Source: Candidatus Cloacimonadota bacterium (GTDB taxonomy: Bacteria > Cloacimonadota > Cloacimonadia > Cloacimonadales > TCS61). Taken from it: a stretch of DNA of 64,000 bases. The stretch is taken from the NCBI GenBank assembly GCA_021735645.1, contig JAIPGP010000005.1, forward strand, positions 1,908 through 65,907, read 5' to 3'. Of this stretch, positions 12,303 through 60,668 are shown one piece after another (position 1 is the stretch's first letter; every line of letters starts with the position of its first letter). The notes below the pieces were generated by a model. That model was not told the origin of the DNA. It saw only the letters and a program-made list of their open reading frames with translations, and ran no database searches. The position numbers and the translations under genes are program-made.

Positions 12303-12340
12303 TTTTGAATTGAAAATAAAACTGCTGTGCAGTTAAACCT

Positions 12341-12378
12341 GCCGGGACTTCTAACTTCACTGAAGTCCCGGCATTTTC
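12341..12378 (+). terminator. Rho-independent terminator after paralogue 2
   Basis: Perfect 11-bp stem GCCGGGACTTC / GAAGTCCCGGC followed by ATTTTC. Confidence 0.7.
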
Positions 12379-12417
12379 AACTGCTGGATAAATAGAAGAA
12401 TCAGGATGGGATATTTT

Positions 12418-15400
12418 ATGAAGAATTGCGGCTTATTGATTTTGATAACACTGCTGAATATTACATTGTGGGGATTGCAGATTGATATACCTGATAATGC
12501 TCAGAACAAATTAGTGGAATATGAACAAATTGATGAAGGCAATATTCATCTGGAATTTAACCTGGATAAATATGAAAGAGAAGAACTCACCAGAGCTGAG
12601 GTCACCTACACAAAAATAAGCAATCCGGAAGCTGGCAGTTTATTAGATATCGGCATGCCAGACCTGCCGGTTTTCACCCGCCTGGTCGCTATACCTGATG
12701 AGGGGAATCCCCTCTTGACCATAACTTCTTTAAACTCACATACAATAAAAAATATCATGATCTATCCGCAAGAAGAAATCCTGACTGAGACTGAAACCGA
12801 GCGAGATGTTTTCACAATTGATTCCGAATACTATCAGCAGGGAGGTATTTATCCGGCTGCTGCAGCAGTGCTGGGAGAACCGGCAATAATGCGTGATATA
12901 AGACTCGTAAAAGTCACCTTCAATCCCTTCCAGTATAATGCTGCTGCCAGGGAACTGGTAATACACGATAATATCTGCGCGGAACTTACTATCAGCGGCA
13001 GTGGAGGCATAAATGTCAAAACCGGAAACCGCCCACCATCACGTGTCTTTGACAATTTATACGCTTCTTCAGTATTAAATCATGCGGAAACCACAAATCT
13101 GCGAACCGATTTCCAGAGACCGGCTATTTTATTCATTTATCCGCAAAACAACAATGTTGAGAACAATCTGCAATATCTCATGGACTGGAAAAACAAAAAA
13201 GGATTTGATGTTACTTCTGCCAGTACCAGCCAAACCGGTACAACATCTGCCATGATCAAAAACTATATCCAGAACGCTTATGATAACTGGGAAAATCCCC
13301 CTGACTATGTGGTTTTAGTAGGCGACGTGAGCGGGACAATTTTACTTCCTTCCTGGTATGAAAGCTGGAGCGGTACGCAGGGGATTGGTGATCATCCCTA
13401 TGCACAACTGGAAGGTAATGATGTATTGGCAGATATTATCTTAGGCAGAATATCGGTAAATAATATCAATGAATTGCAAACCGTCATCGCCAAATCTATA
13501 AATTATGAAAGAGAACCTTATATGGATAATACCCAGTGGTTTGAAAACGCAATATTATTTGCTTACGGCGGACCGGGTAAAATTGCCACCTGTGAAACAG
13601 TAGAAGGATATATCAGCATTCACAATAACGATTTCTCTTTTACCGAAATTTACTACAGTAACTGGGTATATGCGTTAGACCAGGCCTTAAATACGGGAGC
13701 TAGTTATTTATGCTGGCGGAGTCAAGGAGTGGATTGTGACTGGAATAATAATAATATATATGCCTTGAACAATGGCTGGATGCTGCCTTATGGTGTATTA
13801 TGCACCTGCTTTACTGCTGATATTTATGGAAGCAGTCTCAGTGAAGCTTTTGTGAAAGCGGGAACTTCTACCATCCCAAAAGGCGGAATTGCCGCAGTGG
13901 GCACTTCCACGGGAATGACTTCCGGCTGCTTCAATAATTGCATTACAAATGGTGTCTTTTATGGCATTTTTATCGATAATATCTATACTACCGGCGGAGC
14001 GTTAGTGCGGGGAAAACTGAATCTCTATCAGCAATATCCCAGTAATCCCAGCAATCATGTAAATTGCTGGTCACATTGTAATAATCTCATGGGCGATCCT
14101 TCTATAGAGCTGTGGACAGGTATTCCTCAACCCATGCTCGTGAATATCCCGGATGAGGTGGCTTTCGGGACGAATTTTATGGAAATTAACCTGACTGATG
14201 AGGCTGGTGTTCCTCTGGAAAATGGCTGGGTTACTGCCCGTGGAGATAATGATTATTACCAGACTGGCTATACAGATATGCAGGGTAAATATTATCTGGA
14301 TATCTCAGGCACAGAAATGAACCAGACATTTGAAATCACTATAACCTCACATAATAAAATACCTTATGAAAATGAGATCAACGTTATTCAGGCTGAATAT
14401 CTTCTTGATATTGCTCAGGTAAACTTCCTGGACTCACAGGGCGATGGAATCCCTAACCCCGGCGAAGAAATCACTCTGGAACTCACTATTGCCAATGACG
14501 GCTCCAGCGATCTCACAGGTATTTCTGCAGAACTGGTTTCTCTAAATGATAACGTTTCAGTTGTTATTTCCAATACTGATTTAGGAGACCTTAACAGCGG
14601 AAGTCAATTAGTAAATTCCGATCTTGCAATTTATCTCGACTCGGCAACTCCTGGAGGCAGCAGAGTCCAATTACAGCTCATTCTCACTTCTGATGGAGAA
14701 ATATATGTGATACCGCTCTTTATAGATATTTCCGGTGCTACACTCTATATAGCCAGTTATGTTGCCCAGGATTCTAATGGCATACTTGATCCTGGAGAAT
14801 CTGCTGATATCTATTTCATGATTGAAAATCTGGGTGCTATTGCTGCAACTTCAATTTACGGTGAACTGGCTTGCTTTAACAGCAGGATCTCGATTCAGGA
14901 CAGTACGGGATTTTTTGGAGATATTGCCCCGGGAGGCACTGCCTATAATTTTTCTGATACTTTTGAAATCACTGCCGACAGTAACATTATTCCTGGCACA
15001 CAAATCCCGGTGACTATCACTTTTACGAACCTTAATGGTTATAATGAAACCTGTTCTTATTTAATTGAGATAGGCACTGTAACTGAGGAAGACCCTTTAG
15101 GTCCCGATGAATACGGATATTACTGCTATGATGATGGAGATACTGCTTACGATGAATGCCCCGTTTATGACTGGATAGAAATACACAGCATCGGAGATAA
15201 TCTGGGCTTATATACCCCAGGTGACGAAGCTGATATCGAAGATGTTGAACTGCCGGCTGATTTCTCATTTGTCTTTTATGGCTTAGAATACGATATGATC
15301 ACTGTAGCTTCTGCCGGCTGGATTTGCCCCGGTGGAACAGATGCCGCGGAATTTATGAACTGGACCCTGCCCGGAGCTGGAGGAGCAAGTCCCATGATCG

Positions 15401-17181
15401 CAGCTTTCTGGGATGATATCCACAATGGCTATAATGGAGGTGTATATACTTATTATGACGCTGCCCAGCATTATTTTATCATCGAATGGGATCACATGCA
15501 AAATGAGCATAATAATGAAGAAGAAACATTTCAAATATTGCTCTACGACCCTGATTACTATCCGACTACTACAGGTGACAGCAAAATAAAAATACAGTAC
15601 AAGGCATTTACTAATGCCAATATCGGTGAATATCCCTATCACGGAGCTGATCATGGTCTCTATTGCACTGTAGGACTGGAAGACCATACTGCCACAAGAG
15701 GATTACTTTATACTTATAATAATACCTATCCCACTGCTGCAAAACCGATCACCTCTGAATCTGCCCTGCTGTTCACCGTTTCTCCTGTCCCCCAGGATGG
15801 TCCCTTCCTTAACATTGTAGATTATGAAGCCTATGCCGGAGGTGACTGCTTTATCGAAGCCGGCGAAGAAGCCATGATCTCGATTGTACTGCAAAATTTA
15901 GGGGCTGAATCTGCTAATGACGTGCAGGTTATTCTCTCCGGAGATGATCAGTATATTGATATTCTGAATGATACCGCTAATTGTGACCTTGTTTTGGCAA
16001 ATTCCATGGTAACAATTCCCAATGCTTTTTTAATCAGTGTCAGTGAAAATGTCCCTGATTTCTATTCTTTTTCTCTTAATGTAAATATCAGCAGCAATGA
16101 AGAAGCCTGGAACCAGCTGATCATACTCACCGCTTATGAATTAAACACCTTCACAGTTGATCCGGCGGTTATAAATTACGAAATGATCTGGGGTAATTCT
16201 GACAGCACTTCTTTTGAACTCGCTAATATAGGTGATATTCCCATAAATTTCTATATCCGCACAGATGAAACTTCTACCAGCAGAGATGTTATGGGTTCTT
16301 TCCTGGAATGTGATGCCACAGGTTTTACTCCCGGGCAATCCACTTACTGGACATTTACGGTGCATAATGGCGCAATTGATAATGAATGGATTTCTGATGT
16401 CTGGATAGATTTCCCCTTAGGGGTTACCCTGATTGAAGCCGGAGATTTTGTCGGTGGTTCCGGTGGAAATATGTTCTGGGACGAAACTACTGGTCAAGGT
16501 GCCAATGTCAACTGGCATGGAACTACTGTAAGTGACTGGGGAGTACTGCATTATGGAGAAGTAGCCTCCGCTACAATGTTTGTAAATCTCAGCACCGAAT
16601 TTGCCGGTGATCTCACTATTAATTATTCAATTGGCGGAGACGGCTATGGCAATGAACCTCATGTCATAAATGGCGAGATCATTCTGGAATACCCGCTGCG
16701 CTGGATTAACCTCAATATGTCATCTGGTACAATACCTCCCGGTCAGTCACAGGAAATCTGCGTTGATTTTGACACTGCTGATATTGAAGAAACCGTGCAT
16801 ACCTGCAATATCGTGATCACATCTGATAGCTGGGACACTAAAACCATTCCCGTCACGCTAATTCCTGTCGCCCAGGGTAATGATCCGGAATCAATTCCTG
16901 CCAGTAATATATTGAGCCAGAATTATCCTAATCCCTTCAATCCCCGAACGATTATTCCCTTCAGCATCTGCGAGTCAGCTGCAAATGTGACCCTGAAAAT
17001 ATATAATCTGAAAGGTCAGGCAATCAGAACTCTGCTGAATGCCCCGACAGAACCAGGCAATTTCACCTTGTACTGGGATGGAAAGGATGATAACGGCAAA
17101 GATGTTGCCAGTGGTATATATTTCTCTAATCTCTCAGTAGATGGAGAAAAGCAGACCCGCAAAATGGTGATGATCAAATAG
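12418..17181 (+). CDS. Giant (~1587 aa) peptidase C25-family-like paralogue with T9SS C-terminal sorting domain
   Basis: Colinear with 7536..12302 over its full length and ends in the same RKMVMIK. I prefer the ATG at 12418 (MKNCGLLILI... signal peptide) over the ATG at 12406 used in the ORF track. Confidence 0.85.
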   Translation: MKNCGLLILITLLNITLWGLQIDIPDNAQNKLVEYEQIDEGNIHLEFNLDKYEREELTRAEVTYTKISNPEAGSLLDIGMPDLPVFTRLVAIPDEGNPLLTITSLNSHTIKNIMIYPQEEILTETETERDVFTIDSEYYQQGGIYPAAAAVLGEPAIMRDIRLVKVTFNPFQYNAAARELVIHDNICAELTISGSGGINVKTGNRPPSRVFDNLYASSVLNHAETTNLRTDFQRPAILFIYPQNNNVENNLQYLMDWKNKKGFDVTSASTSQTGTTSAMIKNYIQNAYDNWENPPDYVVLVGDVSGTILLPSWYESWSGTQGIGDHPYAQLEGNDVLADIILGRISVNNINELQTVIAKSINYEREPYMDNTQWFENAILFAYGGPGKIATCETVEGYISIHNNDFSFTEIYYSNWVYALDQALNTGASYLCWRSQGVDCDWNNNNIYALNNGWMLPYGVLCTCFTADIYGSSLSEAFVKAGTSTIPKGGIAAVGTSTGMTSGCFNNCITNGVFYGIFIDNIYTTGGALVRGKLNLYQQYPSNPSNHVNCWSHCNNLMGDPSIELWTGIPQPMLVNIPDEVAFGTNFMEINLTDEAGVPLENGWVTARGDNDYYQTGYTDMQGKYYLDISGTEMNQTFEITITSHNKIPYENEINVIQAEYLLDIAQVNFLDSQGDGIPNPGEEITLELTIANDGSSDLTGISAELVSLNDNVSVVISNTDLGDLNSGSQLVNSDLAIYLDSATPGGSRVQLQLILTSDGEIYVIPLFIDISGATLYIASYVAQDSNGILDPGESADIYFMIENLGAIAATSIYGELACFNSRISIQDSTGFFGDIAPGGTAYNFSDTFEITADSNIIPGTQIPVTITFTNLNGYNETCSYLIEIGTVTEEDPLGPDEYGYYCYDDGDTAYDECPVYDWIEIHSIGDNLGLYTPGDEADIEDVELPADFSFVFYGLEYDMITVASAGWICPGGTDAAEFMNWTLPGAGGASPMIAAFWDDIHNGYNGGVYTYYDAAQHYFIIEWDHMQNEHNNEEETFQILLYDPDYYPTTTGDSKIKIQYKAFTNANIGEYPYHGADHGLYCTVGLEDHTATRGLLYTYNNTYPTAAKPITSESALLFTVSPVPQDGPFLNIVDYEAYAGGDCFIEAGEEAMISIVLQNLGAESANDVQVILSGDDQYIDILNDTANCDLVLANSMVTIPNAFLISVSENVPDFYSFSLNVNISSNEEAWNQLIILTAYELNTFTVDPAVINYEMIWGNSDSTSFELANIGDIPINFYIRTDETSTSRDVMGSFLECDATGFTPGQSTYWTFTVHNGAIDNEWISDVWIDFPLGVTLIEAGDFVGGSGGNMFWDETTGQGANVNWHGTTVSDWGVLHYGEVASATMFVNLSTEFAGDLTINYSIGGDGYGNEPHVINGEIILEYPLRWINLNMSSGTIPPGQSQEICVDFDTADIEETVHTCNIVITSDSWDTKTIPVTLIPVAQGNDPESIPASNILSQNYPNPFNPRTIIPFSICESAANVTLKIYNLKGQAIRTLLNAPTEPGNFTLYWDGKDDNGKDVASGIYFSNLSVDGEKQTRKMVMIK

Positions 17182-17185
17182 TATA

Positions 17186-17884
17186 TTATTCCAGCGGTAG
17201 CATGTATTTCTTGCTGACAACACTCAGGTCATCTTTAAGCTCATAGACCAGGGGATTACCGGTGGGAAGTTCCAGACTTGCTATCTGGTTCTCATCCAAA
17301 TCTTCCAGCAGCATGATCAAGGCGCGTAAAGAATTACCATGGGCAGATATTAGAACATTTTTGTGATCTTTAACTACCGGCATTATATTACTTTCCCAGT
17401 AACCTTTAAATCTATTAAGTGCATCCTCTAAAGATTCTCCATGAGGCAATACCCCTTCCGGAAGAGCAGAATATTTTGCTTCTCTATCAGGAGATCGAAC
17501 ATCATCCTCAGCCATTTGGGGAGGTCTGGTTGAATAACTTCTCCGATATTGTTTGAACATTCCAACGCCCACTTCTTTTTTCACAACCTCTTTCACCTGA
17601 CCCTGCAAATCGCCATAATGACGCTCATTCAGGTGCCAGTCTTTTACTACCGGAATCCACATTAAATCCATTTGCTCCAGTATTATCCAGAGTGTGTGAA
17701 TTGCCCGCTTTAAATATGAAGTGTAGGCAATATCAAAACTATATCCGGCATTTTTCAAAACCTCTCCGGCCAGCTTCGCTTCCTGCCTGCCCTCTTCAGA
17801 TAAATTCACATCCGTCCAGCCCGTAAATATCCCCGCTTTATTCCATTCACTCTGTCCATGTCTTATTAATACCAGCTTTATCAC
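17186..17884 (-). CDS. gpmA: 2,3-bisphosphoglycerate-dependent phosphoglycerate mutase
   Basis: LVLIRHGQSEWN...FTGWTDV...ERHYG...SAHGNSLRAL. A GTG start at 17884 lies 6 nt after GGAGG and gives the typical (M)IKLVLIRHG N-terminus. The ORF track's ATG at 17902 adds 6 residues. Confidence 0.9.
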   Translation of the reverse strand: MIKLVLIRHGQSEWNKAGIFTGWTDVNLSEEGRQEAKLAGEVLKNAGYSFDIAYTSYLKRAIHTLWIILEQMDLMWIPVVKDWHLNERHYGDLQGQVKEVVKKEVGVGMFKQYRRSYSTRPPQMAEDDVRSPDREAKYSALPEGVLPHGESLEDALNRFKGYWESNIMPVVKDHKNVLISAHGNSLRALIMLLEDLDENQIASLELPTGNPLVYELKDDLSVVSKKYMLPLE

Positions 17885-17997
17885 AAATAACCTCCAGCCC
17901 ATATATTACTCACTTTCTGAGTCCTGGCAAATTATATATCATACTATTACATTGCAAGATTTTTTATCCTAAACCATCCCTGATCCTTTGAGGGGTA

Positions 17998-18033
17998 GGG
18001 TTATAGGTCATATAGGACATATAAGACCTATAG
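17998..18033. repeat. Four tandem 9-bp units of the YTATAGGNC family
   Basis: GGTTATAG GTCATATAG GACATATAA GACCTATAG, in the divergent gpmA/mfd spacer. Confidence 0.8.
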
Positions 18034-18147
18034 TTTGTAAGGTTGACACTTTTTGCAAGAGCACAGTTTTTGTTTTCAGTTACCGATAAATCCCCCTGCG
18101 GGTGATATATCGGCTATTGGTGTTTTGGTAAATAAGAGGAGAAGCCA

Positions 18148-21100
18148 ATGAGATATTATGATCTGATCAAGAGTGATCTGGATAAATCAGCTTTCTTTCT
18201 GAATTATGACAGTATCCTGCGGGAAGACGTACGCGGCAATTTATTCCATCATCTGAACCGGACAGTGAAAGCTCTTCTGCTGAGTAGAGCCTATTTTGTG
18301 ACGGGTAAGAATGTGCTGATGGTTTGTGCTGATGATAAGCTGGCAGAAGATTTCATGGATGATCTGCAATTACTTGCCGGTAAATCTAATGTGTTTATGC
18401 TGCCCGACTATGAAACTCTTGCCTATGAGCAGCGTTCACCGCATTACACGATCCGGGCAGAACGGATTCGCACCCTGAGCAGTGTATTCCGGGAAAAACC
18501 GGCAATTTATATTGTCTCTATCCGCTCATTACTGCGTAAAATAGTGCCCGCTGAGATATTTTCGCGTTATGTGATCAATCTTAAGCTTTTTGAGACTAAA
18601 AATCCTGATCATCTGCTTTCTGAACTGGTAGGGATGGGCTATAAAAACGAATTTCAGGTAACAAAAGTGGGGCAGATTGCCAGACGGGGCGGGATCATAG
18701 ATATCTTCAGTCCTAATCTGGTGAATCCTGTGCGCATTGAATATTTTGGCAATGAAATAGAATCTCTACGCTATTTCACATTATCAACTCAGCGTTCCTT
18801 TGGCAAAGAACTGGAAGAAGTTACTCTGATCCCTTCGCGTGAATTTTCGCTGCATGACATCGAAGCCAGTCCGCAAATCTGGGAACGCATCCACGACAAA
18901 GGTTTTTATGAAGGTATAGAGCAGGACATTAGTCTGTTATTAAAAAAGACTAGCGGTTTTGCGGAATATTTTCAGGAAGATAAGTGTCTTTTTTTCTGGG
19001 ATGAATATCAGTTCTTTAGTGCTACTTACCGTGAGATCCAGGATGAGACGCAGCAGGCTTTCATTAAAGCGAGAGAAAAAAGAAGCAAGGATGAGCTGCC
19101 GGAGCCGGAGAATCTCTTTTATAGTAAAAGCTATATCCAGCGTTTATTTCAGCGGTTTTCGCATTGTTTCCTGAGTAACAGTTATCAGGAATTTAAGCGG
19201 ATTAGTGTGCAGGTGGAGGTGCCGGTAGCCAGTCAGGTGAGTCAGCAGGGTAATCTGGAAAGTCTGGAGCAGGAATTAGGCGAAAAACTGGATGACGGTT
19301 ACCGGGTGATTATCCAGAGTGATAATAAAAGCCAGAGTAAGCGGATGAGTGATCTTTTGGAGAATCTGGAAGGCAGAATTCATTTTGAGATCGGAGTTTT
19401 TCAGAAAGGATTTATATTAGCAGATGCCCGGCTGGCTATATATACCGACCATGAGATATTTGCCCGGTACCGGCAGCGGACCCGCAGTGCCAGATTCAGC
19501 CGTGAAGAAGCACTGGTGGATTATGAAGCACTGAAACCCGGTGATTATATAGTTCATATAGATTATGGCGTAGGCATATATAAAGGTCTTAGTAAAATGC
19601 CTTCCGGTGGCTCGACAATTGACTGTCTAACTATTGGTTATGCGGATAATGATGTAGTATATGTCCCCACTTTTCAATTAAACCGTGTCTCCAAATTCGT
19701 CAGCGAAGAAGGCAGCACTCCTACTATCCATAAGCTGGGCGGTAAAGTGTGGGCACTTGCCAAGAAACGCGCCAAGAAACAGATAGAAATACTGGCAGAA
19801 GATTTGCTGCAGCTCTATGCAGAGCGGCAGGTGCGGCGAGGCATCAGCTTTGATGCAGACAGCTCCTGGCAGCAGGAGATGGAAGACTCTTTCATCTATG
19901 AGATCACACCTGATCAATTGCAATCGACTAAGGAGATCAAGCGTGATATGGAAAAGGATAGTCCCATGGAGCGGTTATTGTGCGGTGATGTAGGCTTTGG
20001 CAAAACCGAAGTGGCGATCCGGGCAGCATTTAAAGCCGTGATGAGCGGTTATCAGGTGGCTATTCTGGCACCTACCACCCTGCTGGTGGAACAGCATTAT
20101 CACACGTTCAAAGAAAGGCTGGCACAGTATCCCATGCGTATTGCCATGCTCAGCAGATTCCGCAGTAAAGCCATGATAGGTAAAGACCTGGTGGATATGC
20201 ACGATGGTAAAATAGACATCGTGATCGGAACGCACAGGCTGCTTTCCAAAGACATCCAGTTCAAGAAACTGGGGCTGCTGATCATTGATGAAGAGCATAG
20301 ATTTGGCGTCCGGCATAAGGATAAGTTGCGGCAATTAAAATCTAATGTGGATACGCTCTATATGAGTGCCACGCCAATTCCCCGCACGCTGAGCATGTCA
20401 CTCAGCAGATTAAAAGAGATGTCACTCATCCGCACTTCGCCTAAGGCAAGGCTGCCCATCCGCACAGTAGTAGTACCTTTTGATGAAGAAGTGATCAAAG
20501 ATGCAATTAATCGGGAAATAGACCGGGGCGGTCAGGTGTTTTTTGTTCATAACCGGGTTCAGACTATAGACAGCATGGCAGAGAAGCTGCGAAATCTCTT
20601 ACCACATGTGAGCTTTGGGATAGGTCATGGTCAAATGCCGGAAAAGCAGCTGGAAGCTATTATGCTTGATTTTTCGGAGCATAAATTTGATGTTCTGCTG
20701 GCTTCCACGATCATAGAATCCGGCATCGATATCCCGAATGTAAACACTATGATCGTGAACCGGGCAGACACGTTCGGGCTGGCACAGCTTTACCAGATAC
20801 GCGGCAGAGTAGGCAGAAGCAACAGGCGGGCTTATGCCTATCTGATCATTCCAGCCCAGATGACCGATATAGCCCGTAAACGCCTGGAAACATTAACTGA
20901 ATACGAATCCTTAGGCAGTGGCTACCAGATAGCCATGAAAGACCTGGAAATCAGAGGTGCCGGAGCTATGCTGGGCACGAAACAGAGCGGTGCGATTAAT
21001 TCTATAGGCTTCAATCACTATAACCGGCTTTTGGAAAATGCCGTGGAAAGTCTTTCCCAGGGCAAAGGCAAGATTGAATGGGAAGATGAGGAAATTGAAG

Positions 21101-21540
21101 AAAAGCAGGATATTTCTGTGGCTGAAGACTATTATCTGCCGGAGGAATACATTAAAGATGAGCAGGTACGGCTGAATATTTACCGGCGCATCAATACTTT
21201 TAGCACTGATAATGAATTTGATGAATTACCCGGAGAACTGCGGGACAGATTTGGGGAAGTGCCGGAAGTGGTAAGCAGGGCGCTGGAATATTTTCGTTTG
21301 CGCTGGCGGGTTTCGCAAACCAGTATGACAAAGTGCAAGATTCGTGGCAGAAAGATAGTGCTGGAATTTCCGGCTAATAATCTTCCCGGTAGAGCAACAT
21401 TAACCAGTTTAATCGGCTCTATGAACTATCCGGTCAAATTTGAGACTATCAACGATCTCAAGATCACCTTTGACTTAAGCAAAAGCAGCGATAACGTGCT
21501 GGATGTGGCGTCAAAAATAGTGGATTTTTTTGGGAATTAA
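18148..21540 (+). CDS. mfd: Transcription-repair coupling factor
   Basis: AGGAG SD; 1130 aa; CarD-like segment (GDYIVHIDYGVGIY); SF2 helicase motifs (GDVGFGKTEVA, IIDEEHRFG, SATPIPRT, QIRGRVGRS). Confidence 0.95.
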   Translation: MRYYDLIKSDLDKSAFFLNYDSILREDVRGNLFHHLNRTVKALLLSRAYFVTGKNVLMVCADDKLAEDFMDDLQLLAGKSNVFMLPDYETLAYEQRSPHYTIRAERIRTLSSVFREKPAIYIVSIRSLLRKIVPAEIFSRYVINLKLFETKNPDHLLSELVGMGYKNEFQVTKVGQIARRGGIIDIFSPNLVNPVRIEYFGNEIESLRYFTLSTQRSFGKELEEVTLIPSREFSLHDIEASPQIWERIHDKGFYEGIEQDISLLLKKTSGFAEYFQEDKCLFFWDEYQFFSATYREIQDETQQAFIKAREKRSKDELPEPENLFYSKSYIQRLFQRFSHCFLSNSYQEFKRISVQVEVPVASQVSQQGNLESLEQELGEKLDDGYRVIIQSDNKSQSKRMSDLLENLEGRIHFEIGVFQKGFILADARLAIYTDHEIFARYRQRTRSARFSREEALVDYEALKPGDYIVHIDYGVGIYKGLSKMPSGGSTIDCLTIGYADNDVVYVPTFQLNRVSKFVSEEGSTPTIHKLGGKVWALAKKRAKKQIEILAEDLLQLYAERQVRRGISFDADSSWQQEMEDSFIYEITPDQLQSTKEIKRDMEKDSPMERLLCGDVGFGKTEVAIRAAFKAVMSGYQVAILAPTTLLVEQHYHTFKERLAQYPMRIAMLSRFRSKAMIGKDLVDMHDGKIDIVIGTHRLLSKDIQFKKLGLLIIDEEHRFGVRHKDKLRQLKSNVDTLYMSATPIPRTLSMSLSRLKEMSLIRTSPKARLPIRTVVVPFDEEVIKDAINREIDRGGQVFFVHNRVQTIDSMAEKLRNLLPHVSFGIGHGQMPEKQLEAIMLDFSEHKFDVLLASTIIESGIDIPNVNTMIVNRADTFGLAQLYQIRGRVGRSNRRAYAYLIIPAQMTDIARKRLETLTEYESLGSGYQIAMKDLEIRGAGAMLGTKQSGAINSIGFNHYNRLLENAVESLSQGKGKIEWEDEEIEEKQDISVAEDYYLPEEYIKDEQVRLNIYRRINTFSTDNEFDELPGELRDRFGEVPEVVSRALEYFRLRWRVSQTSMTKCKIRGRKIVLEFPANNLPGRATLTSLIGSMNYPVKFETINDLKITFDLSKSSDNVLDVASKIVDFFGN

Positions 21541-22132: not shown

Positions 22133-22184
22133 CGTCCACTGCGTCCACTTAGTCCTCTGCGTCCACTTAGTCCACTGTCCACTC
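22133..22184. repeat. Six tandem ~9-bp units containing GTCCACT
   Basis: CGTCCACTG CGTCCACTTA GTCCTCTG CGTCCACTTA GTCCACTG TCCACTC. The GTCCACT core recurs at 22134, 22143, 22152 (variant), 22161 and 22170. Confidence 0.8.
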
Positions 22185-22306
22185 ACCCCAGAGCAACTTA
22201 TATGCAAAGATAAGGTTAAATAACATTATTATCTTCTAAGTTAATTTTATCTTGACTGATCAGATAATAAAAATATAAATTGTCTCATCATTTTTGGGAG
22301 GTATTT

Positions 22307-24835: not shown

Positions 24836-24868
24836 GGATATATAGGACCTATATCCTAAAATACCCTC
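24836..24868. repeat. Degenerate copy of the YTATAGGNC 9-bp array; includes a GGATATA/TATATCC inverted repeat
   Basis: GGATATATAG GACCTATAT CCTAAAATA. Confidence 0.5.
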
Positions 24869-40186: not shown

Positions 40187-40435
40187 CTAATTTTCGTTAG
40201 TTGTCTCGTCTTCTTCTACTACTTCTTCTTCTTCTTCTTCCACTTTGTATTTCTTATTAAAACGCTCGATCCGACCTGCTTTCTGTACTGATCGCTGCTT
40301 GCCAGTATAGAAAGGATGGCATTTCTCACAAATCTGGACGTCAAGCTTATCTGACGTTGACTTCGTCTCAAATGTGTTACCACAAACACATCTCACGGTC
40401 ACTGTTTCATACTTCGGATGAATTTTATCTTTCAT
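40187..40435 (-). CDS. rpmE: 50S ribosomal protein L31 with an acidic C-terminal extension
   Basis: MKDKIHPKY...CVCGN...[12 protein letters not shown]. The internal ATG at 40435 gives the canonical start. The tail is [17 protein letters not shown]. Confidence 0.9.
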
Positions 40436-40583
40436 TGAGAACTCCTTTCTCGCTATATTCTTATCCAAATAACACTTTTTTTATCTTGCTCTCTTAATGT
40501 CAACTATTTTCCCAATAAATCTGATTTTGACAGATCATGACAGTTCAATTTTCTTAATATTCTCACTGCTCTACCATCAAAGG

Positions 40584-40628
40584 GTCTTATAGGTCTTATA
40601 GGGCTTATAGGGCTTATAGGGCTTATAG
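40584..40628. repeat. Five tandem 9-bp units (GKCTTATAG)
   Basis: GGTCTTATAG GTCTTATAG GGCTTATAG GGCTTATAG GGCTTATAG. Confidence 0.9.
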
Positions 40629-41057: not shown

Positions 41058-44000
41058 TTGATTGACATGAAAATGAGTAAGGTTAAAAGACGAAATAAGG
41101 AAGGAAATGAAATGTTAAAAGATATAAATGAAAAATCAACAGCTTTGGAAAGTAATTTACGGGAGACAAACCGGGGCAGCAAAATTATTCCGGAAAAATA
41201 TCAGTGGCTGTTGTCTCAGTCAATTGGTAAAAAGGGTATAAATGAGCGTTGTAAGACTCTATTAGATGAGTATAATCATCCTTTTTCTAACCATAAAGTA
41301 GCAACAGAAGATCTGGTGCAGGTTGCTTTAAGTGATTTATGGTATTATGATCAGCTGCCTGAACGCCGGAGGATATATGAGTTGATATTAGGAATATTTT
41401 CTGATTTATTGCAGCGTTATATAGAAGTAGATATTCAAGACCGTCTGATTCAGACCCTGATTCGGTTTATTAGTAAGCTTGCTGAGCAGGATAACTATGA
41501 TCTGGTATCAATCCAGTCAGGTCTGGAGCTGATAAAAAACATCTATCGCAGTGATTCTATACTACTGGAGCGTAACAGCACTTATATCAAGAATAATTTC
41601 AAGGTTGTATATGAGATTCCGGAAATGAGAGAGGTTTGTCTGGATTATTGCCGTAAGTTATTAAGCGGAGTTTATTCACGCTGGCATGATTTACCGCAAT
41701 TAGAGGAATGGTATAAGGAAAAACAAGCACTTTTTGGAGAAGATTATCAGTCATTGATCCATGAGACGGGCAGGGAATTTATCGAATCTGAGCGAAAACG
41801 TCTGATGTCCATCAAGAATTGGGACGATGTCAGAGGAATGTCATTTTATGGTGATCTGGCTCAGAAATACCGGAGCCTGATTAGCCGCTTTGCGACCAGT
41901 CAGGAAAAGATTTATTATATTCTCTATTTATTTAAACTGGATGACATGTATCAGATGAGAAAGAGTTTATTGCTGGACTTGAACCGAACAATGCGTCGAG
42001 TGGGTGAAGAAATAGAATTAGAAGAGATGCAGAAATTTATGCAGGAAATATTTGGCTTGTTTGCAGAGCTAAAGGATAATTACCGCGAGACGGTTCTGGA
42101 CAGCATTTTATCATTGGGCAAGACGATAATAAGCTATGGCAATAAAGATTTACGACATTTATTCATAGATTTAGTGATCGGGCTGGGATTTGTCTCGCCA
42201 CGTGATGTAAAGATAGATAACGAGTGGCAGGTAGTGATAGACAGCAATCACATCAAGAATATCAGGGTATGGCTGCAGCTTGTGGAGCTGGACCCGATCG
42301 GGATGAACCGCTTGCTAAGTGCGCTTATTATAAATTTACGCGTAGGCGGTATATTTGTCTCTGATACGGATTTATTCCAAAAAGATATATCAAGGTTTCT
42401 GAGAGGAAATATTCAGCCTATCTTTAAACAAGTAAAGCAATTAGCCAGATTATTCCCTATTTATTATAATAAAATTGGGGCAGAAGGCGAATTACGGGAA
42501 TTGACAACAGCTATTGATGAGATGGGTCGCAGGCAGGACCGGCTGCTGCATTTTTTCCGCAAACAGGTTCACACTGAGAGCAATAATACTAACGTGGATC
42601 TGGCAAGGGATATACTGGAATACTGGGAGGGTGGTTATAGTGCGAAGGCGAAAACAACTCTACCAGATGATGTAAGAAAATTTATGAATACTGAAAATGA
42701 ATTTTATATTTTTAATCATCAGCTGGTGAAATTGTTGTGCGGGGAATATAAGTGCACGGTAATGGGTCTGGCAGAGCTGGATAGAAAAATCCTGGAGCGG
42801 TCCATAGATGAGAAACAGGAAATACCGGAGGTATACCGCCGGAAAGTGATGTATTTGATTCGGATTTATAATATTCTGCAGGAAAAGTATAGTTTTGGGA
42901 TAACAGATTTGGATAGTACCTTGCGGAAAAGCGGATTATGCGAAGAAAAGGATATCAAGTTATTGCTGGAATCATGGAAAGGTAAAAAATGGGCAGAGGC
43001 ATTGGAGAGTTTATTTGCGATCATGAAGAAGCTTGTGAAAGTAATATTTTCTTCAGAGCCTACAGAGGTGCGGGAAGACATCTATTATAAGCGTCATGTT
43101 GCTGCAGGGATACCTTCGATGTATGGCGAATACCGAGAGGCAAGGTTTGATGCCTTGGGCTTGATTTTCCGGCTGGAACAATTGGGTAAAGTGCTTTTGG
43201 AGAAAATTGAGAACAGAATAGACCTGATCTATTTCACCCATAAAACTCTGGAGCGGATTTATAGATTATTAAGGTTATATGAGACCGGATTGGAGATGGA
43301 TGGCATCAGTAATCCGGGATTCAGTTCCAATCTTGAGATGTTTCGCTATAGTCTGGAATCCAGCTTCACTTTGGATCAGTACCAGAACATTTTTCAGTTT
43401 CTGGCAGAGAATGCAAAGGAAATAGTGAAGGAATATTTTTACCGGATATATGAGCAGCCTTTGATGAAGATCACTGTGCAATATTTAGCAGAAGGCGGGA
43501 TAGAAGAGCGAATGCAGCAATCAGACCGCCTGTCGGAAAAATTTTACCGGGATGTTTTAACCTCGGCTTTTATTATCCAGAAGCTGGATAATTTTATCAT
43601 GACGCTCTTGAAATCTAACCGTGATATTGTCCAAAAATATGAAAAACAACACTTGATTATGCTCTTAAATTATGAGCCAGACCAGATAATGAGTCCGCTT
43701 TATTTATCTACTCCCGAGGTGGACAATCCGATATTTCTGGGTTCAAAGGCATATTTCTTGAAAGTAATGCTGGAAAAGGGATTTCCCATTCCACCAGGAT
43801 TTGTGCTTTCTACAGAGCTGTTCCGGCACCGTCCACTGGTTCTGCTTGAGGGTGCCTTTCGCACAGATATCTTGAATAAGATACGTAAGCAGGTGAAAAG
43901 ATTGCAGAGCCTGGCAGGCAGAAAGTTTGGTGACCCGGCAAATCCGATGTTACTAAGTGTGCGTTCCGGTACAGCGATTTCGATGCCGGGAGCGATGAAT

Positions 44001-45212
44001 ACTTTTTTAAATGTGGGAATGAATGATGAAATTGCTGAAGAGATGAGTAAGCAGAAAGGTATGGGCTGGACTGCCTGGGATTCTTACCGGCGTTTATTGC
44101 AGAGCTGGGGAATGGCGCAAAAAATTGAGCGGGATAAATTTGATGAGATCATTCAGGGTTATAAAACGGAGTTTGGGATTGCGATGAAGCAGAACCTGAG
44201 CACTGAGCAGATGAAACGGATTGCCCTGGCATATAAGAAAAAGATTCTGGATTGCGGAAAAGAATTTATCGATGATCCTTTTGAGCAGCTGTTTAAGGCT
44301 ATTGGATATGTGCTGGACAGCTGGGGCTCAGATCGCGCTTTGGTATATCGGGAGCAAATGCAGATAGCACATGAATGGGGAACTGCTGTTGTAGTTCAAC
44401 AAATGGTGATGGGTAATATGAGCGAGAATTCGGGGACTGGTGTCCTTTTTACCCATGACCCGGCAAGTAATGAACCAGGCTTAAAGCTCTATGGTGAATA
44501 CACTGTGTGCAGTCAGGGAGAAGATGTAGTTGCCGGACTGGTGAATGTGAAACCCTTAACCCGCCAGCAAGGTAAAGTCTTAAGCGATAATGGCAATGAC
44601 AGCCTGGAAGCAAAACTGCCGCTGATTTTTAATCGCTTAAATGAACTGGCAGCAAAAATGATCTATGACCATGGTTTCAGCCACCAGGAAATAGAATTTA
44701 CTTTTGAGTCTGAGAATCCGGAAGATTTATATATCCTGCAGACCCGGAATCAGGACATTCAAACTAAGCGGGACTTCAAGATATTTTCTGCCAAGCGGGA
44801 AGAAATGGTATTTGCCGGTAGCGGCATAGGCATAGGTGGCGGAGCATTGAACGGGATTTTAGCCTTTAATGAAGATGATTTGCATACTTACCGTCAGCAG
44901 TATCCGGATATGGCAATGATCTTAGTCCGCCCCGATACGGTTCCAGATGATATCGGCATGATCTTTAAATGTGATGGCTTGATCACGGGTAGAGGTGGAG
45001 CAACCTCTCATGCAGCTGTAACAGCAGTGAGGCTGGGTATAGTGTGTATAGTAAATTGCCGGCAACTGGTTGTTGATGAAGAGAAAAAATGTTGTCAAAT
45101 CCTTGATAAAAAACTGTTTAGCGGAGATAAAGTGGCGATTGATGGTCATTTTGGGAATATCTATATCGGTAATTATGATGTGCAAACGGAAAGGATGTCT
45201 TATCAGGGATAG
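41058..45212 (+). CDS. 1384-aa protein: ~870-aa unrecognised N-terminal region fused to a PPDK-type ATP-grasp nucleotide-binding domain and swivel phosphohistidine domain; no PEP/pyruvate TIM barrel
   Basis: The C-terminal ~510 aa are colinear with PPDK: FGDPANPMLLSVRSGTAISMPGAMNTFLNVGMND, YRRLLQSWG, GTAVVVQQMVMGN, SGTGVLFTHDP, QGEDVVAGL, QEIEFTFE..LYILQTRN, ILVRPDTVPDDIGMI, GLITGRGGATSHAAVTAVRLG. The start is uncertain: TTG at 41058, or ATG at 41112, which follows AGGAAGGA. Confidence 0.8.
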   Translation: MIDMKMSKVKRRNKEGNEMLKDINEKSTALESNLRETNRGSKIIPEKYQWLLSQSIGKKGINERCKTLLDEYNHPFSNHKVATEDLVQVALSDLWYYDQLPERRRIYELILGIFSDLLQRYIEVDIQDRLIQTLIRFISKLAEQDNYDLVSIQSGLELIKNIYRSDSILLERNSTYIKNNFKVVYEIPEMREVCLDYCRKLLSGVYSRWHDLPQLEEWYKEKQALFGEDYQSLIHETGREFIESERKRLMSIKNWDDVRGMSFYGDLAQKYRSLISRFATSQEKIYYILYLFKLDDMYQMRKSLLLDLNRTMRRVGEEIELEEMQKFMQEIFGLFAELKDNYRETVLDSILSLGKTIISYGNKDLRHLFIDLVIGLGFVSPRDVKIDNEWQVVIDSNHIKNIRVWLQLVELDPIGMNRLLSALIINLRVGGIFVSDTDLFQKDISRFLRGNIQPIFKQVKQLARLFPIYYNKIGAEGELRELTTAIDEMGRRQDRLLHFFRKQVHTESNNTNVDLARDILEYWEGGYSAKAKTTLPDDVRKFMNTENEFYIFNHQLVKLLCGEYKCTVMGLAELDRKILERSIDEKQEIPEVYRRKVMYLIRIYNILQEKYSFGITDLDSTLRKSGLCEEKDIKLLLESWKGKKWAEALESLFAIMKKLVKVIFSSEPTEVREDIYYKRHVAAGIPSMYGEYREARFDALGLIFRLEQLGKVLLEKIENRIDLIYFTHKTLERIYRLLRLYETGLEMDGISNPGFSSNLEMFRYSLESSFTLDQYQNIFQFLAENAKEIVKEYFYRIYEQPLMKITVQYLAEGGIEERMQQSDRLSEKFYRDVLTSAFIIQKLDNFIMTLLKSNRDIVQKYEKQHLIMLLNYEPDQIMSPLYLSTPEVDNPIFLGSKAYFLKVMLEKGFPIPPGFVLSTELFRHRPLVLLEGAFRTDILNKIRKQVKRLQSLAGRKFGDPANPMLLSVRSGTAISMPGAMNTFLNVGMNDEIAEEMSKQKGMGWTAWDSYRRLLQSWGMAQKIERDKFDEIIQGYKTEFGIAMKQNLSTEQMKRIALAYKKKILDCGKEFIDDPFEQLFKAIGYVLDSWGSDRALVYREQMQIAHEWGTAVVVQQMVMGNMSENSGTGVLFTHDPASNEPGLKLYGEYTVCSQGEDVVAGLVNVKPLTRQQGKVLSDNGNDSLEAKLPLIFNRLNELAAKMIYDHGFSHQEIEFTFESENPEDLYILQTRNQDIQTKRDFKIFSAKREEMVFAGSGIGIGGGALNGILAFNEDDLHTYRQQYPDMAMILVRPDTVPDDIGMIFKCDGLITGRGGATSHAAVTAVRLGIVCIVNCRQLVVDEEKKCCQILDKKLFSGDKVAIDGHFGNIYIGNYDVQTERMSYQG

Positions 45213-48316: not shown

Positions 48317-48708
48317 CTGTCGGAGAGGATCATATATCTGCTGTCCCGCTTGCGGGAGAGAGGAAAGTCCGAACACCAAAGGGCAGGATACTTCTTAACT
48401 GGAAGTCCTTGTGAAGGGGAGCTAGCTCCACAGAAACAAACCGCCGAAAGGTAAGGGTGAAATGGCAGAGTAAGAGCCTGCCAGATTCTGACGTGAGTCA
48501 GAATGCTCGGAAAGCCTTATCCGGTGCAATGCCAAATAGGGAAGCAGTCTTCGGACCCGGATTTGCCCGATCCGGTTTGCTTTCGGGTAGGCAGCTTAAG
48601 CCGGCTTAAATGTCCCGGTTGGGAATAGCAATATTCGGCTTAGAGAAATAGATGTATGATCACTTGTTAGGTGATTAACAGAATTCGGCTTATGACCGTC
48701 TCCGACAG
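48317..48708 (+). ncRNA. rnpB: RNase P RNA, bacterial type A
   Basis: P1 pairing of CTGTCGGAGA (48317-48326) with TCTCCGACAG (48699-48708). Conserved blocks: AGGAAAGTCCGAAC (48361-48374), ACAGAAACAAACCGCC, GGTAAGGGTGAAA, and ACAGAATTCGGCTTA (48678-48692). Confidence 0.92.
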
Positions 48709-59281: not shown

Positions 59282-59380
59282 TCCCAAACTACCCCTGATC
59301 CCCAATAAAAATCAATATTTTCACCCTATTCTCCCCATAACACCCGTATCATCACCACCCATATGCCAGCTATAAGGTAA

Positions 59381-59430
59381 AACAACAAAGCACAATCTAA
59401 CAAAAAAATGTTAGATTGTGCTTTGTTGTT
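59381..59430. repeat. Perfect 22-bp inverted repeat with an A6 loop
   Basis: AACAACAAAGCACAATCTAACA aaaaaa TGTTAGATTGTGCTTTGTTGTT, 100 nt after the NIF3 stop. Confidence 0.9.
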
Positions 59431-59483
59431 CTGCCTTAGGGTTGCGTTATTGGCTAAATGATGCTAAATTAGCTGGTTATAAT

Positions 59484-59536
59484 GTTTATAGGACTTATAG
59501 GACCTATAGGACCTATAAGTCCTATAAGACCTATTG
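59484..59536. repeat. Six tandem 9-bp units of the YTATAGGNC family
   Basis: GTTTATAG GACTTATAG GACCTATAG GACCTATAA GTCCTATAA GACCTATTG. Confidence 0.9.
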
Positions 59537-59687
59537 GGAGATTAAGAAGCAAAATGATAATAATGATTAATTCTCTGGGATGGCAGTGATACGTTAGAGG
59601 AAATGATAAAGATATGATTCAGGAAGTTGATGTTGAATAACTTCATAAAAGTTGACATATAAACAACCAGTCAAAGGGATTGCATTT

Positions 59688-60668
59688 ATGAAAGAGATAT
59701 TAAAAGAGAATTTAGAGACTGGTGGGGTAAAATTACCTGAAAGTGCTGGAGTTGTAGCGTTTTTTGGTGAAGGCAAGATGCTGATGTGCAGCATGACCAG
59801 CAACATATCAGTATATCTGGGAGTATATTTTCTGGAAGATATAGAGGATAAGAATCAGGGTGAATTAGTGGAGCGTTGTGATAAAGTGGGATATTGGGAG
59901 ACGGGCAAGGTATTTGCCGCTCTTCTGGGCTTCAAAGCTCTGGTACAGAAATACGCTCCTCCATTTAACCGGATGATCAGGTATTATGATGATTATGTAT
60001 ATCTGGGTATAAATTTTGTGAAAGTGCCCTTTATTAAGGTGGAGAGTACAACAATACATGATTATTTTTATGTGGGACCATTTCGGAGCCGTTATTTTCT
60101 GCATGATGTGATAGACAGTTCAGGCGAGTATTTTGGGACTCCGGGCTGTCCTGGAGAGAGTTTTCCCTGTGAATTGATGGAGGCAGGAAAGTGTCAGGGA
60201 TATTGCGTAACCGGTCAGGATAATCTATCAGCAGAGCTTACCCGTTATTTTTTACTGCCCCGGCATGAGAACCTTGAAAAAGTGAAGTTAGAAATAGATG
60301 AGCTGCTTGATGCTTTACGTTTTAGTGAAGCGGAAGCTGTGCGTCAGCAGGAGAAGATATTGACCAGTTTTTATCATCAGATAGCTTTTTTACTGGTAAC
60401 CAAGCACTTAAATATGCATTATGACTACAATGGCAAGCAGATAGAAATAGCTGAAGGATTGATCACGCGGATAGATGGCAGGATATTAGACAGAGTGAAG
60501 CAGGAATATCAGCCAAATGAATTATTTGCAGTCGATAAATCTGAGCTTGATGAGCGTTGGATAGTTTTTAATGAAGTGATTCATCAGATACCGGAGAAGC
60601 TGCTGGAATGTCATGAAACAGCACGGCAGCAGTTAGCGGAATATTTATTAAATAAGGAAAAGCCATGA
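59688..60668 (+). CDS. UvrC N-terminal-half-like protein (degenerate GIY-YIG, Cys-rich segment, UVR-like helix); lacks the C-terminal endonuclease/HhH half
   Basis: Colinear by eye with UvrC residues ~1-250: LPESAGVVAFF (PGVYlf), AALLGFKALVQKYAPPFNRMIRYYDDYVYLGI (EALLLE..LIk...P.YN..l.DDk.YP), YVGPF (YFGPY), CPGESFPCELMEAGKCQGYCV (C...pCl.yqi.rC.gPC), LLDALRFSEAEAVRQQ (UVR). The ATG at 59688 is preferred over the TTG at 59652, which is itself a TTGACA box. Confidence 0.6.
   Translation: MKEILKENLETGGVKLPESAGVVAFFGEGKMLMCSMTSNISVYLGVYFLEDIEDKNQGELVERCDKVGYWETGKVFAALLGFKALVQKYAPPFNRMIRYYDDYVYLGINFVKVPFIKVESTTIHDYFYVGPFRSRYFLHDVIDSSGEYFGTPGCPGESFPCELMEAGKCQGYCVTGQDNLSAELTRYFLLPRHENLEKVKLEIDELLDALRFSEAEAVRQQEKILTSFYHQIAFLLVTKHLNMHYDYNGKQIEIAEGLITRIDGRILDRVKQEYQPNELFAVDKSELDERWIVFNEVIHQIPEKLLECHETARQQLAEYLLNKEKP

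Follow-up and report, generated by a model that had tools for sequence, protein, structure and literature searches.

Arrays of a palindromic nine-base-pair unit in the spacers of a Cloacimonadota genome and at loci of other bacterial phyla

Why should the same nine-base-pair (bp) sequence be repeated head to tail in several separate spacers of one bacterial genome? The question is raised by a stretch of 64,000 nucleotides (nt) from the metagenome-assembled genome (MAG) of a Candidatus Cloacimonadota bacterium (contig JAIPGP010000005.1, positions 1,908 to 65,907), hereafter called the window. A preliminary description of this DNA had noted five such units upstream of rpmE and related arrays elsewhere in the window, and had proposed either an iteron-like array for a DNA-binding protein or a slippage element that changes promoter geometry. 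The analysis reported here followed the unit, TARGNCYTA, through the window, its close relatives and other bacterial genomes. On balance, and with slightly better than even confidence, we regard the arrays as a widespread family of invasive, expansion-prone palindromic nonamer microsatellites and not as conserved binding sites. They occupy places that tolerate extra DNA, namely spacers, a 16S rRNA gene and protein loops.

The arrays of the window

Arrays with a period of 9 bp were called in the window with Tandem Repeats Finder (TRF). Three arrays are clear and are numbered 1 to 3 (Table 1). The fourth site of the preliminary description, at 24837-24854, holds only about two units and is more aptly called a seed. 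The unit had also been written in other registers and is best spelled TARGNCYTA (TA-R-G-N-C-Y-TA). These 9 bp are palindromic around a central base that is free to vary, and abutting units add a further 8-bp palindrome, CCTATAGG. All units of array 1 have the same orientation, with central bases T, T, G, G and G.

That the arrays are real, interrelated and dispersed, as first described, was borne out by TRF and by a two-unit pattern with at most 3 mismatches, which matched 25 times in the window against 1.59 expected (largest shuffle 7). Period 9 was the sole period among 4 to 15 with strong runs in a lag scan of the window, and shuffled windows contained no arrays. The flanks of the window arrays showed no residual or decayed 9-bp periodicity, and no break in GC skew was found at the arrays.

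Open reading frames (ORFs) cover 91.4% of the window in a greedy ORF map, and every array lies in the remaining 8.6%, so that the confinement to spacers claimed at the outset holds for this DNA. By our own arithmetic, four independent sites would all be non-coding by chance with a probability of about 5e-5. The distances to the nearest start codons had also been given correctly, and amount to 149 nt for rpmE, 115 nt for mfd, 154 nt for the gene at 59688 and 300 nt for the gene at 25154.

When the source reads (SRR12088349) were assembled independently in Logan, arrays 1, 2 and 3 appeared again; they are therefore not an assembler artefact. The Logan contigs stop inside both five-unit arrays (array 1 at L001 1-40, array 2 at L191 1-50), and the 3.6-unit array 3 is read through (L120); the L-numbers, L001 to L275, designate the loci and contigs compared in this work. 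These breaks fit either k-mers common to other arrays or mixed array lengths.

The arrays were also folded as DNA. Array 2 is a near-perfect hairpin or palindrome (-15.3 kcal/mol, z = -4.7, the other strand being similar with z to about -5), with inverted-repeat arms of 21-23 nt that are 91-95% complementary. Array 3 is a weak hairpin (z = -2.7), and the seed has no significant fold (z = -1.0). It is the run of central bases that decides whether an array can fold.

Spread of the unit across phyla

One genome per GTDB species, 596 Gb in all, was scanned with a three-unit pattern. This pattern corresponds to 39 bits, and by our own estimate about 1 chance match is expected in 596 Gb, against at least 118 loci found. 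The hosts among the matches listed belong to about 12 phyla: Bacteroidota (Prevotella, Tidjanibacter, Muribaculaceae and others), Chlorobiota, Acidobacteriota (Pyrinomonadaceae, Blastocatellia, Thermoanaerobaculia and Aminicenantes), Planctomycetota, Verrucomicrobiota (including Lentisphaeria), Nitrospirota, Desulfobacterota, Armatimonadota, Hydrogenedentota, Sumerlaeota, Patescibacteria (two candidate-phyla-radiation lineages) and one MAG of the Heliobacteriaceae. Two cultured isolates, Chlorobaculum sp. 24CR and Prevotella pectinovora P4-76, are among them. No Alpha-, Beta- or Gammaproteobacteria, Actinomycetota or Cyanobacteriota occur among the matches listed, an absence that is only suggestive. 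The host loci range from 37% to 68.5% GC among the matches listed, and the unit itself has 33-44% GC. Several genomes supply many loci, and some loci bear an array every 1-3 kb, with 8-kb stretches holding three or four; the density thus reaches 4 per 8 kb in other genomes, compared with 3-4 copies in the 64-kb window.

A logo of the unit was built from 151 arrays and reads T.98, A.91, R (A.43, G.51), G.96, N (A.39, T.46), C.97, Y (C.56, T.38), T.92 and A.99. The median length of these arrays is 4.4 units and the longest has about 14. Adjacent units have the same central base in 65% of cases, against 37.5% expected, and this excess points to unit-by-unit duplication. The arrays typically end as AATAGG...CCTATT, i.e. 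AA(TAGGNCCTA)nTT, and single copies of the motif outside arrays are not enriched.

Further arrays are found at the listed loci, some with heterogeneous 7-bp units and others with 9-bp units that are mostly variants of TARGNCYTA. In Rikenellaceae (Tidjanibacter) MAGs, entire spacers are made up of differing arrays of 7-9 bp, in chains where one grades into the next (ACGTTAG, GTCCTTAAA, CAGGAAGAA, GGGAGTTTA, TTTCAATT; L010 3800-4000, L020 6890-7090, L096 3380-3530 and L047 1790-1950). A separate observation is that an identical 31-mer, TATAGGTCATATAGGACATATAAGACCTATA, which includes two non-consensus A residues, is present at 18002-18032 of the window and at 6096-6126 of locus L061 of a Nitrospirota MAG. 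This identity could be due to chance in a small sequence space or to horizontal transfer.

In other phyla the arrays also enter genes. In-frame arrays were found within Pfam-confirmed genes for MurE, MurF, a class II (Asp/Lys/Asn-type) aminoacyl-tRNA synthetase, a sulfatase-family protein, an O-antigen ligase, a peptidase U32 and the adenylation domain of a nonribosomal peptide synthetase, where the array occupies the loop preceding the YKTGDL motif. The in-frame units are translated as Tyr-Lys/Arg-Ser/Thr or as Gly-Pro-Ile. Two Nitrospirota MAGs (L061 and L067) carry arrays at three orthologous positions, and the orthologous coding arrays (Table 1) differ in length by exactly 18 bp in murE and 9 bp in murF, showing that array length changes by whole units over evolutionary time. 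The 16S rRNA gene of a Nitrospirae MAG (L003 7869-8000) carries an array within its first 130 nt, in a non-consensus insertion after V1 that resembles an intervening sequence and inside which the locus ends. The arrays that form long hairpins (L056, L030 and L061) have a left arm (GGACCTATA)n and a right arm (TATAGGTCC)m in which n and m are unequal, and their variant units and flanks are complementary between the arms.

An all-against-all clustering of the 2,314 ORFs of the 118 listed loci yielded only large signalling families and one small family, that of four-helix-bundle proteins (TIGR02436 + TIGR04258), present in 5 of the loci listed. The gene is flanked by arrays in three loci (L099 1823-2544, L050 1320-2009 and L074 3-787), and in two others (L022 and L062) an array-like sequence within the gene itself encodes SYRTYKTY. 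The window has no gene of this type, and the link between arrays and four-helix-bundle genes is weak, the cases being too few. TIGR02436 with the TIGR04258 suffix is the family of 23S rRNA intervening-sequence proteins.

Explanations for the arrays

According to the explanation that we favour, a seed, (A)ATAGGNCCTAT(T), would duplicate once, and the resulting array would then lengthen and shorten through replication slippage. The self-complementarity of the unit would favour slippage by allowing hairpins on the nascent or the template strand, and template switching between the arms would keep long arrays palindromic and would account for the compensatory variants. Hairpin-assisted slippage is suggested by the combination of the duplication signature, the insertion or deletion of whole units and published work on the elongation of palindromic repeats in vitro. 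As cited in PMC13061963, polymerases readily elongate palindromic tandem repeats via hairpins (Ogata and Miura 2000; Ogata 2000; Liang et al. 2004). The slippage part of the original proposal is supported for the repeat family by the 18- and 9-bp differences in Nitrospirota. Its other part, a switch of promoter geometry, is unlikely, as the window arrays lie outside the promoter core. No array is situated between a TTGACA box and a start codon, so that promoter spacing would not be affected by a 9-bp step, and such a switch is also unlikely because a 9-bp step keeps the frame and nearly keeps the helical phase. Should the neighbouring promoters (rpmE, mfd and the cho-like gene) be affected at all, this would be incidental.

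The arrays resemble contingency loci in that the number of units can change by slippage and in that some are near promoters. They differ from them in having a 9-bp unit, which cannot cause a frameshift, in lying outside the promoter core and in having housekeeping instead of surface or virulence genes as neighbours. A contingency locus is unlikely in the window, where the arrays are 9-117 nt upstream of TTGACA boxes and neither within an ORF nor between -35 and -10.

Close relatives of the host provide evidence on the age of the arrays. The spacer upstream of mfd can be aligned with those of three relatives, L122 (Mfd 83% identical), L121 (88%) and L126, which is Candidatus Stygibacter frigidus (90%). 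Array 3 is absent from the orthologous spacer in all three, and all three retain GGTTGACA, with its TTGACA box, and the downstream leader hairpin with compensatory changes. Contigs of relatives with 70-90% protein identity, about 147 kb in all, contained no clean array and one degenerate array. The latter, in Candidatus Stygibacter australis (TATAGGTCATATAAGTCCTAAATGTCTTATATGACTTATA), lies 6 nt upstream of a TTGACT box before a PPDK-like gene, at a position that is not orthologous to that of any window array. On this evidence the window arrays are recent and lineage-specific, sitting beside housekeeping promoters and being gained or lost between close relatives, which disfavours a conserved operator or iteron.

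Several observations weigh against the slippage explanation. Array 1 has no hairpin potential (fold z-scores of -0.3 and +1.5), so self-complementarity is not required, and positions 3 (R) and 7 (Y) of the unit do not covary (GC 177, AC 175, GT 152, AT 105). The array of Candidatus Stygibacter australis is identical in four samples, and in the Stygibacter-like clade it is mostly substitutions, not copy number, that distinguish orthologous arrays. Copy-number variants of array 1 were sought in metagenome contigs with a flank-anchored, variable-gap pattern, which gave no matches, and no second strain of the host organism was found. Two arrays end 6-9 nt upstream of a TTGACA or TTGACT box, a placement that would suit an activator site too. 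Slippage alone accounts neither for the groups missing from the matches listed nor for the recurrence of one AT-rich motif in the GC-rich genomes of many phyla.

An enzymatic origin of the arrays we consider possible and rather doubtful. A horizontally transferred transposase or nuclease would cut the palindrome TAGGNCCTA with a 9-bp stagger, each cycle of cutting and repair, or of insertion and excision, would add one copy, and hot spots would become arrays. The 9 bp of the unit form a perfect palindrome around a free central base, and the IS10/Tn10 target, NGCTNAGCN, has this form too, like those of other elements that duplicate 9 bp. The ends AA(TAGGNCCTA)nTT are those expected if a symmetric 9-mer is duplicated. 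The patchy, lineage-specific distribution of one motif across phyla and GC contents, the in-frame 9-bp insertions in essential genes and the lack of enrichment of single copies outside arrays are also in favour of an enzyme.

The likeness to the target-site duplications of the IS4 family extends to the symmetric 9-bp motif, its free centre and the 9-bp duplication; it ends with the number of copies, which are many instead of two flanking an insertion, and with the absence of any element. In the roughly 860 kb surrounding the 118 listed arrays, no array was interrupted by an insertion sequence, unit pairs bracketing inverted repeats 0.4-4 kb apart were all array against array, and no transposase or nuclease family recurred beside the arrays at the 118 listed loci. 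A plain transposon target-site footprint was rejected on these grounds. No transposase or nuclease was present in the annotated parts of the window, and no transposase or integrase was found among the window proteins scanned. Moreover, excision of bacterial cut-and-paste elements rarely leaves a duplication behind, and arrays with an 18-bp period (L019) need slippage anyway. In its general form, (TARGNCYTA)n would be the footprint of an undescribed sequence-specific DNA-modifying activity that writes 9-bp duplications into spacers, rRNA hairpins and protein loops, a proposal that we put forward tentatively and with little confidence. Such an activity would be common to FCB, PVC, Acidobacteriota, Nitrospirota, Desulfobacterota and allied phyla, and the arrays would then be a genome-wide record of a mobile or repair system and not passive microsatellites.

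It is unlikely that the arrays serve as structural elements of RNA or single-stranded DNA, their hairpins acting as terminators, mRNA stabilisers, RNase III sites or sites for a HUH transposase as in repetitive extragenic palindromic (REP) sequences. Many arrays in other phyla lie 0-20 nt past a stop codon, with convergent and divergent gene pairs in a ratio of 28:12 (crude ORF map, matches listed), long arrays form hairpins with compensatory variants, and array 2, which folds at about -15 kcal/mol with z = -4.7, adjoins a large conserved hairpin. Against this, the spacers that hold arrays 1 and 3 carry divergent promoters and need no transcript end, array 1 and the array at 22133 do not fold, and hairpin arms have unequal numbers of units. 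The arrays have no Rfam match, and no RAYT-like gene is among the ORF families recurring in the 118 listed loci.

REP sequences and bacterial interspersed mosaic elements (BIMEs) are imperfect palindromes of 20-40 bp with a terminal GTAG or CGTC tag (PMC3733652). The arrays share with them an extragenic, palindromic and probably multicopy nature, a frequent position past gene ends, an occasional tandem arrangement and an occasional intragenic location. They differ in lacking the tag and a discrete 20-40 bp stem-loop, in being built on a 9-bp period and in that some, such as 40584-40628, form no hairpin. Nor was a gene found nearby for a RAYT (REP-associated tyrosine transposase), an IS200-like Y1 transposase whose gene REPs often flank. 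The initial exclusion of classical REP sequences was therefore justified, as was that of CRISPR, which requires repeats of 24-48 bp with unique spacers of similar length; here the 9-bp units abut without spacers, and no cas genes are among the genes flanking the window arrays.

Very unlikely, in our assessment, is the iteron- or operator-like function proposed at first, in which a dimeric protein would recognise TAGGNCCTA and tandem sites upstream of promoters would tune transcription. Each unit has dyad symmetry, all window arrays are in spacers that must hold promoters, and array 3 ends 9 nt before the TTGACA box of mfd (18043-18048), as the array of Candidatus Stygibacter australis ends 6 nt before a TTGACT box. 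The arrays are not kept at orthologous promoters, though promoter and leader are, as the absence of array 3 from the mfd spacer of relatives illustrates. The distance to the TTGACA box varies from 9 to 117 nt, array 1 being 80 nt upstream of its box (40503-40498, minus strand) and the box at 59652-59657 coming 117 nt past array 2. The flanking genes, which also include a Nif3-like gene, are functionally unrelated housekeeping genes, and a link to any regulon is not supported. Moreover, a 9-bp spacing puts successive sites on different faces of the helix, scans for consensus sigma-70 promoters around the arrays scored no better than shuffles, and elsewhere TARGNCYTA arrays lie in coding sequence, in a 16S rRNA gene and past stop codons, which is unexpected for a transcription-factor site. 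The iterons of plasmid and phage origins are likewise short direct repeats in non-coding DNA, but they are 17-22 bp long, conserved and located beside a rep gene and an AT-rich origin, none of which applies to the window arrays. Iterons were rejected on this anatomy: the unit has 9 bp, and the four chromosomal sites are surrounded by housekeeping genes.

The idea that these arrays are left over from, or belong to, genes for collagen-like (Gly-Pro-Ile) or other repeat proteins can be practically dismissed: GGN CCT ATA does encode Gly-Pro-Ile, and most of the 20 matches to the unit pattern in viral contigs, where it is rare, are in true collagen-like genes (Gly-Pro-Ile/Gly-Pro-Thr) with Gly-X-Y repeats on both sides, but the window arrays are short (33-49 bp), sharply bounded by non-periodic sequence and placed between well-supported genes, with flanks devoid of Gly-X-Y periodicity, so that this coding origin is effectively excluded in the window.

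The closest described phenomena are the long simple sequence repeats (LSSRs) of 5-11 bp units, which as cited in PMC4679880 form dispersed arrays with a patchy phylogeny (Mrazek 2007), and the TAACTGA heptamer repeats. The latter are direct repeats found in Beggiatoaceae, Cyanobacteria and Bacteroidetes, with a patchy cross-phylum distribution and no known vehicle (PMC4679880). Like these and the short tandemly repeated repetitive (STRR) heptamers of cyanobacteria (PMC4679880), the TARGNCYTA arrays consist of the same unit scattered in spacers, with a patchy phylogeny suggesting horizontal spread, no enrichment of singletons and tolerance within genes of units that are a multiple of 3. Their unit falls within 5-11 bp, they form several separate, mostly intergenic arrays, and they are patchy among relatives. 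They differ in their palindromic 9-bp unit, in reaching far more phyla, in often forming long hairpins and in occurring in essential genes and an rRNA gene; TAACTGA repeats, moreover, sit just before start codons, and TARGNCYTA arrays do not. Neither six 9-mers nor six 17-18-mers of the arrays were printed in any relevant paper of the searchable literature, and a search at the level of concepts returned only analogues (REPs, palindromic amphipathic repeat coding elements or PARCELs, TAACTGA repeats and G-quadruplex (G4) heptamers).

In-frame palindromic insertion into conserved proteins was seen in other phyla and not in the window. It recalls the Rickettsia palindromic elements, reportedly described by Ogata and co-workers in 2000 as in-frame selfish palindromes at permissive loops of housekeeping proteins and also in non-coding DNA. 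Those are single elements of 100-150 bp in one genus, whereas here a variable number of 9-bp units is found across phyla. Of particular interest are the cross-phylum reach and the colonisation of essential genes and an rRNA gene; the general kind, dispersed short-unit repeats and selfish palindromic DNA, is known.

If the cross-phylum picture holds, the arrays would make up a separate class of bacterial DNA, selfish or neutral, that occupies spacers, an rRNA gene and surface loops of essential proteins (MurE, MurF and an aminoacyl-tRNA synthetase) in a dozen phyla, most of which are known chiefly from MAGs. One AT-rich motif regardless of host GC content calls for horizontal spread or for a shared sequence-specific process, and its origin can be approached by experiment in two cultured carriers, Prevotella pectinovora P4-76 and Chlorobaculum sp. 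24CR. In practical terms, the arrays are likely to fragment short-read assemblies, both long window arrays being at the ends of Logan contigs; the Tyr-Lys/Arg-Ser/Thr or Gly-Pro-Ile inserts can confuse protein alignments, and an array is also inserted at V1 of 16S rRNA. The arrays would also offer strain-typing markers with 9-bp steps. For the window itself, the arrays reveal no hidden regulon.

A repeated hairpin element and other features of the window

Array 2 comes about 55 nt after a long hairpin at 59358-59453, and the whole module folds with z = -10.5. Against Rfam, the hairpin and array region gave only generic hairpin matches below threshold. In Candidatus Stygibacter australis a hairpin about 85% identical to that of the window, at a non-orthologous site, is followed by the array after 17 nt. 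The hairpin core, AGCACNATCTAACAAAAAAATGT, was found in 84 metagenome contigs (L192-L275) representing about 64 distinct loci; they come from few Joint Genome Institute metagenomes, two of which also gave contigs of Candidatus Stygibacter australis. These contigs total 638 kb and contain 16 distinct arrays, of which 13 are at 59-206 nt from a hairpin core; 5.5% of the sequence falls in this zone, and by our estimate the chance probability is near 1e-14. One subfamily has hairpin, linker and array at a fixed offset, and its orthologous copies differ mainly by substitutions. The hairpin is one copy of a highly repeated, mobile-looking element of the Stygibacter-like clade, in which arrays either spread with it or arise beside it. 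The window holds one copy of the element only, and arrays 1 and 3 stand alone. Two observations on the element may be added: a conserved motif, AAGTTTACATAATATT, follows many hairpin copies after about 100 nt, and the half-sites TTAGCAC...GTGCTAA of the family resemble those of CIRCE (controlling inverted repeat of chaperone expression), but with the wrong spacing.

Table 1. Positions of arrays, hairpin element and neighbouring genes (window coordinates unless a locus number is given)
Feature	Position	Strand	Content or match	Remarks
Array 1	40584-40628		five units: GGTCTTATA GGTCTTATA GGGCTTATA GGGCTTATA GGGCTTATAG	TRF 40581-40628, 5.2 copies, 92% matches, score 80
Array 2	59486-59534		~5.3 units, central bases A A A T A	TRF 59487-59534, score 68
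Array 3	18001-18033		3.6 units: TTATAGGTC ATATAGGAC ATATAAGAC CTATAG	TRF 18002-18033, score 43
Seed-like copy	24837-24854		~2 units (ATATAGGACCTATATCC)	one perfect core, ATAGGACCTAT, with partial units on either side
Array of second 9-bp family	22133-22186		unit CGTCCACTK/AGTCCNCTG (CGTCCACTG CGTCCACTT AGTCCTCTG ...)	spacer before gene at 22280; TRF period 9 and 18, scores 55 and 81
Long hairpin	59358-59453		22-bp perfect core stem, 59382-59430; conserved loop ATCTAACAAAAAAATGT	arms extendable to 45 nt
murE and murF arrays (Nitrospirota)	L061 1928-1974, 2932-2985; L067 3032-3060, 4024-4081		Tyr/Lys/Arg/Ser/Thr-rich loops, e.g. KIYKSYKTYRSYRTYKSY	
rpmE (ribosomal protein L31, acidic tail)	40187-40435	-	NCBIfam NF000612, E = 3e-31	gene nearest array 1
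Phosphoenolpyruvate (PEP)/pyruvate-binding (PPDK-like) protein	41058-45212	+		divergent from rpmE; NCBI-annotated start 41112
mfd (transcription-repair coupling factor)	18148-21540	+	TIGR00580, 1011 bits	downstream of array 3
gpmA (phosphoglycerate mutase)	17186-17902	-	NF010713, E = 5.6e-94	divergent from mfd
UvrC-N/Cho-like protein	59688-60668	+		downstream of array 2

The array of the second 9-bp family (Table 1) is not self-complementary and does not fold (z = +1.5). A degenerate tract related to it lies upstream of the PPDK-like gene in an 80% relative (L147, about 9860-9900).

As to the genes beside the arrays, the Mfd protein matches a protein of a 'Candidatus Cloacimonetes bacterium' MAG at 100% identity and the Mfd of Candidatus Stygibacter frigidus at 90%. 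The leader of mfd contains a hairpin at 18082-18125 (ACCGATAAATCCCC...GGGTGATATATCGG, then CTATTGGTGTTT) that is kept in four relatives with compensatory changes (CCGATAAAT/ATATATCGG versus CCGGTGAGT/ATTTACCGG) and may be a cis-regulatory RNA. The acidic tail of L31 is encoded at 40187-40240 by a plus-strand (TCT)n run of 10.7 copies, as counted by TRF.

Over the whole window, the sole Rfam family at gathering score was the bacterial class A RNase P RNA (48322-48707, 234 bits), which occupies an otherwise empty-looking spacer. The window also encodes enzymes of histidine degradation and, at 7536-17181, two tandem paralogues of about 1,590 codons each, which are gingipain-like C25 peptidases with a propeptide, Ig-like domains and a type IX secretion C-terminal domain.

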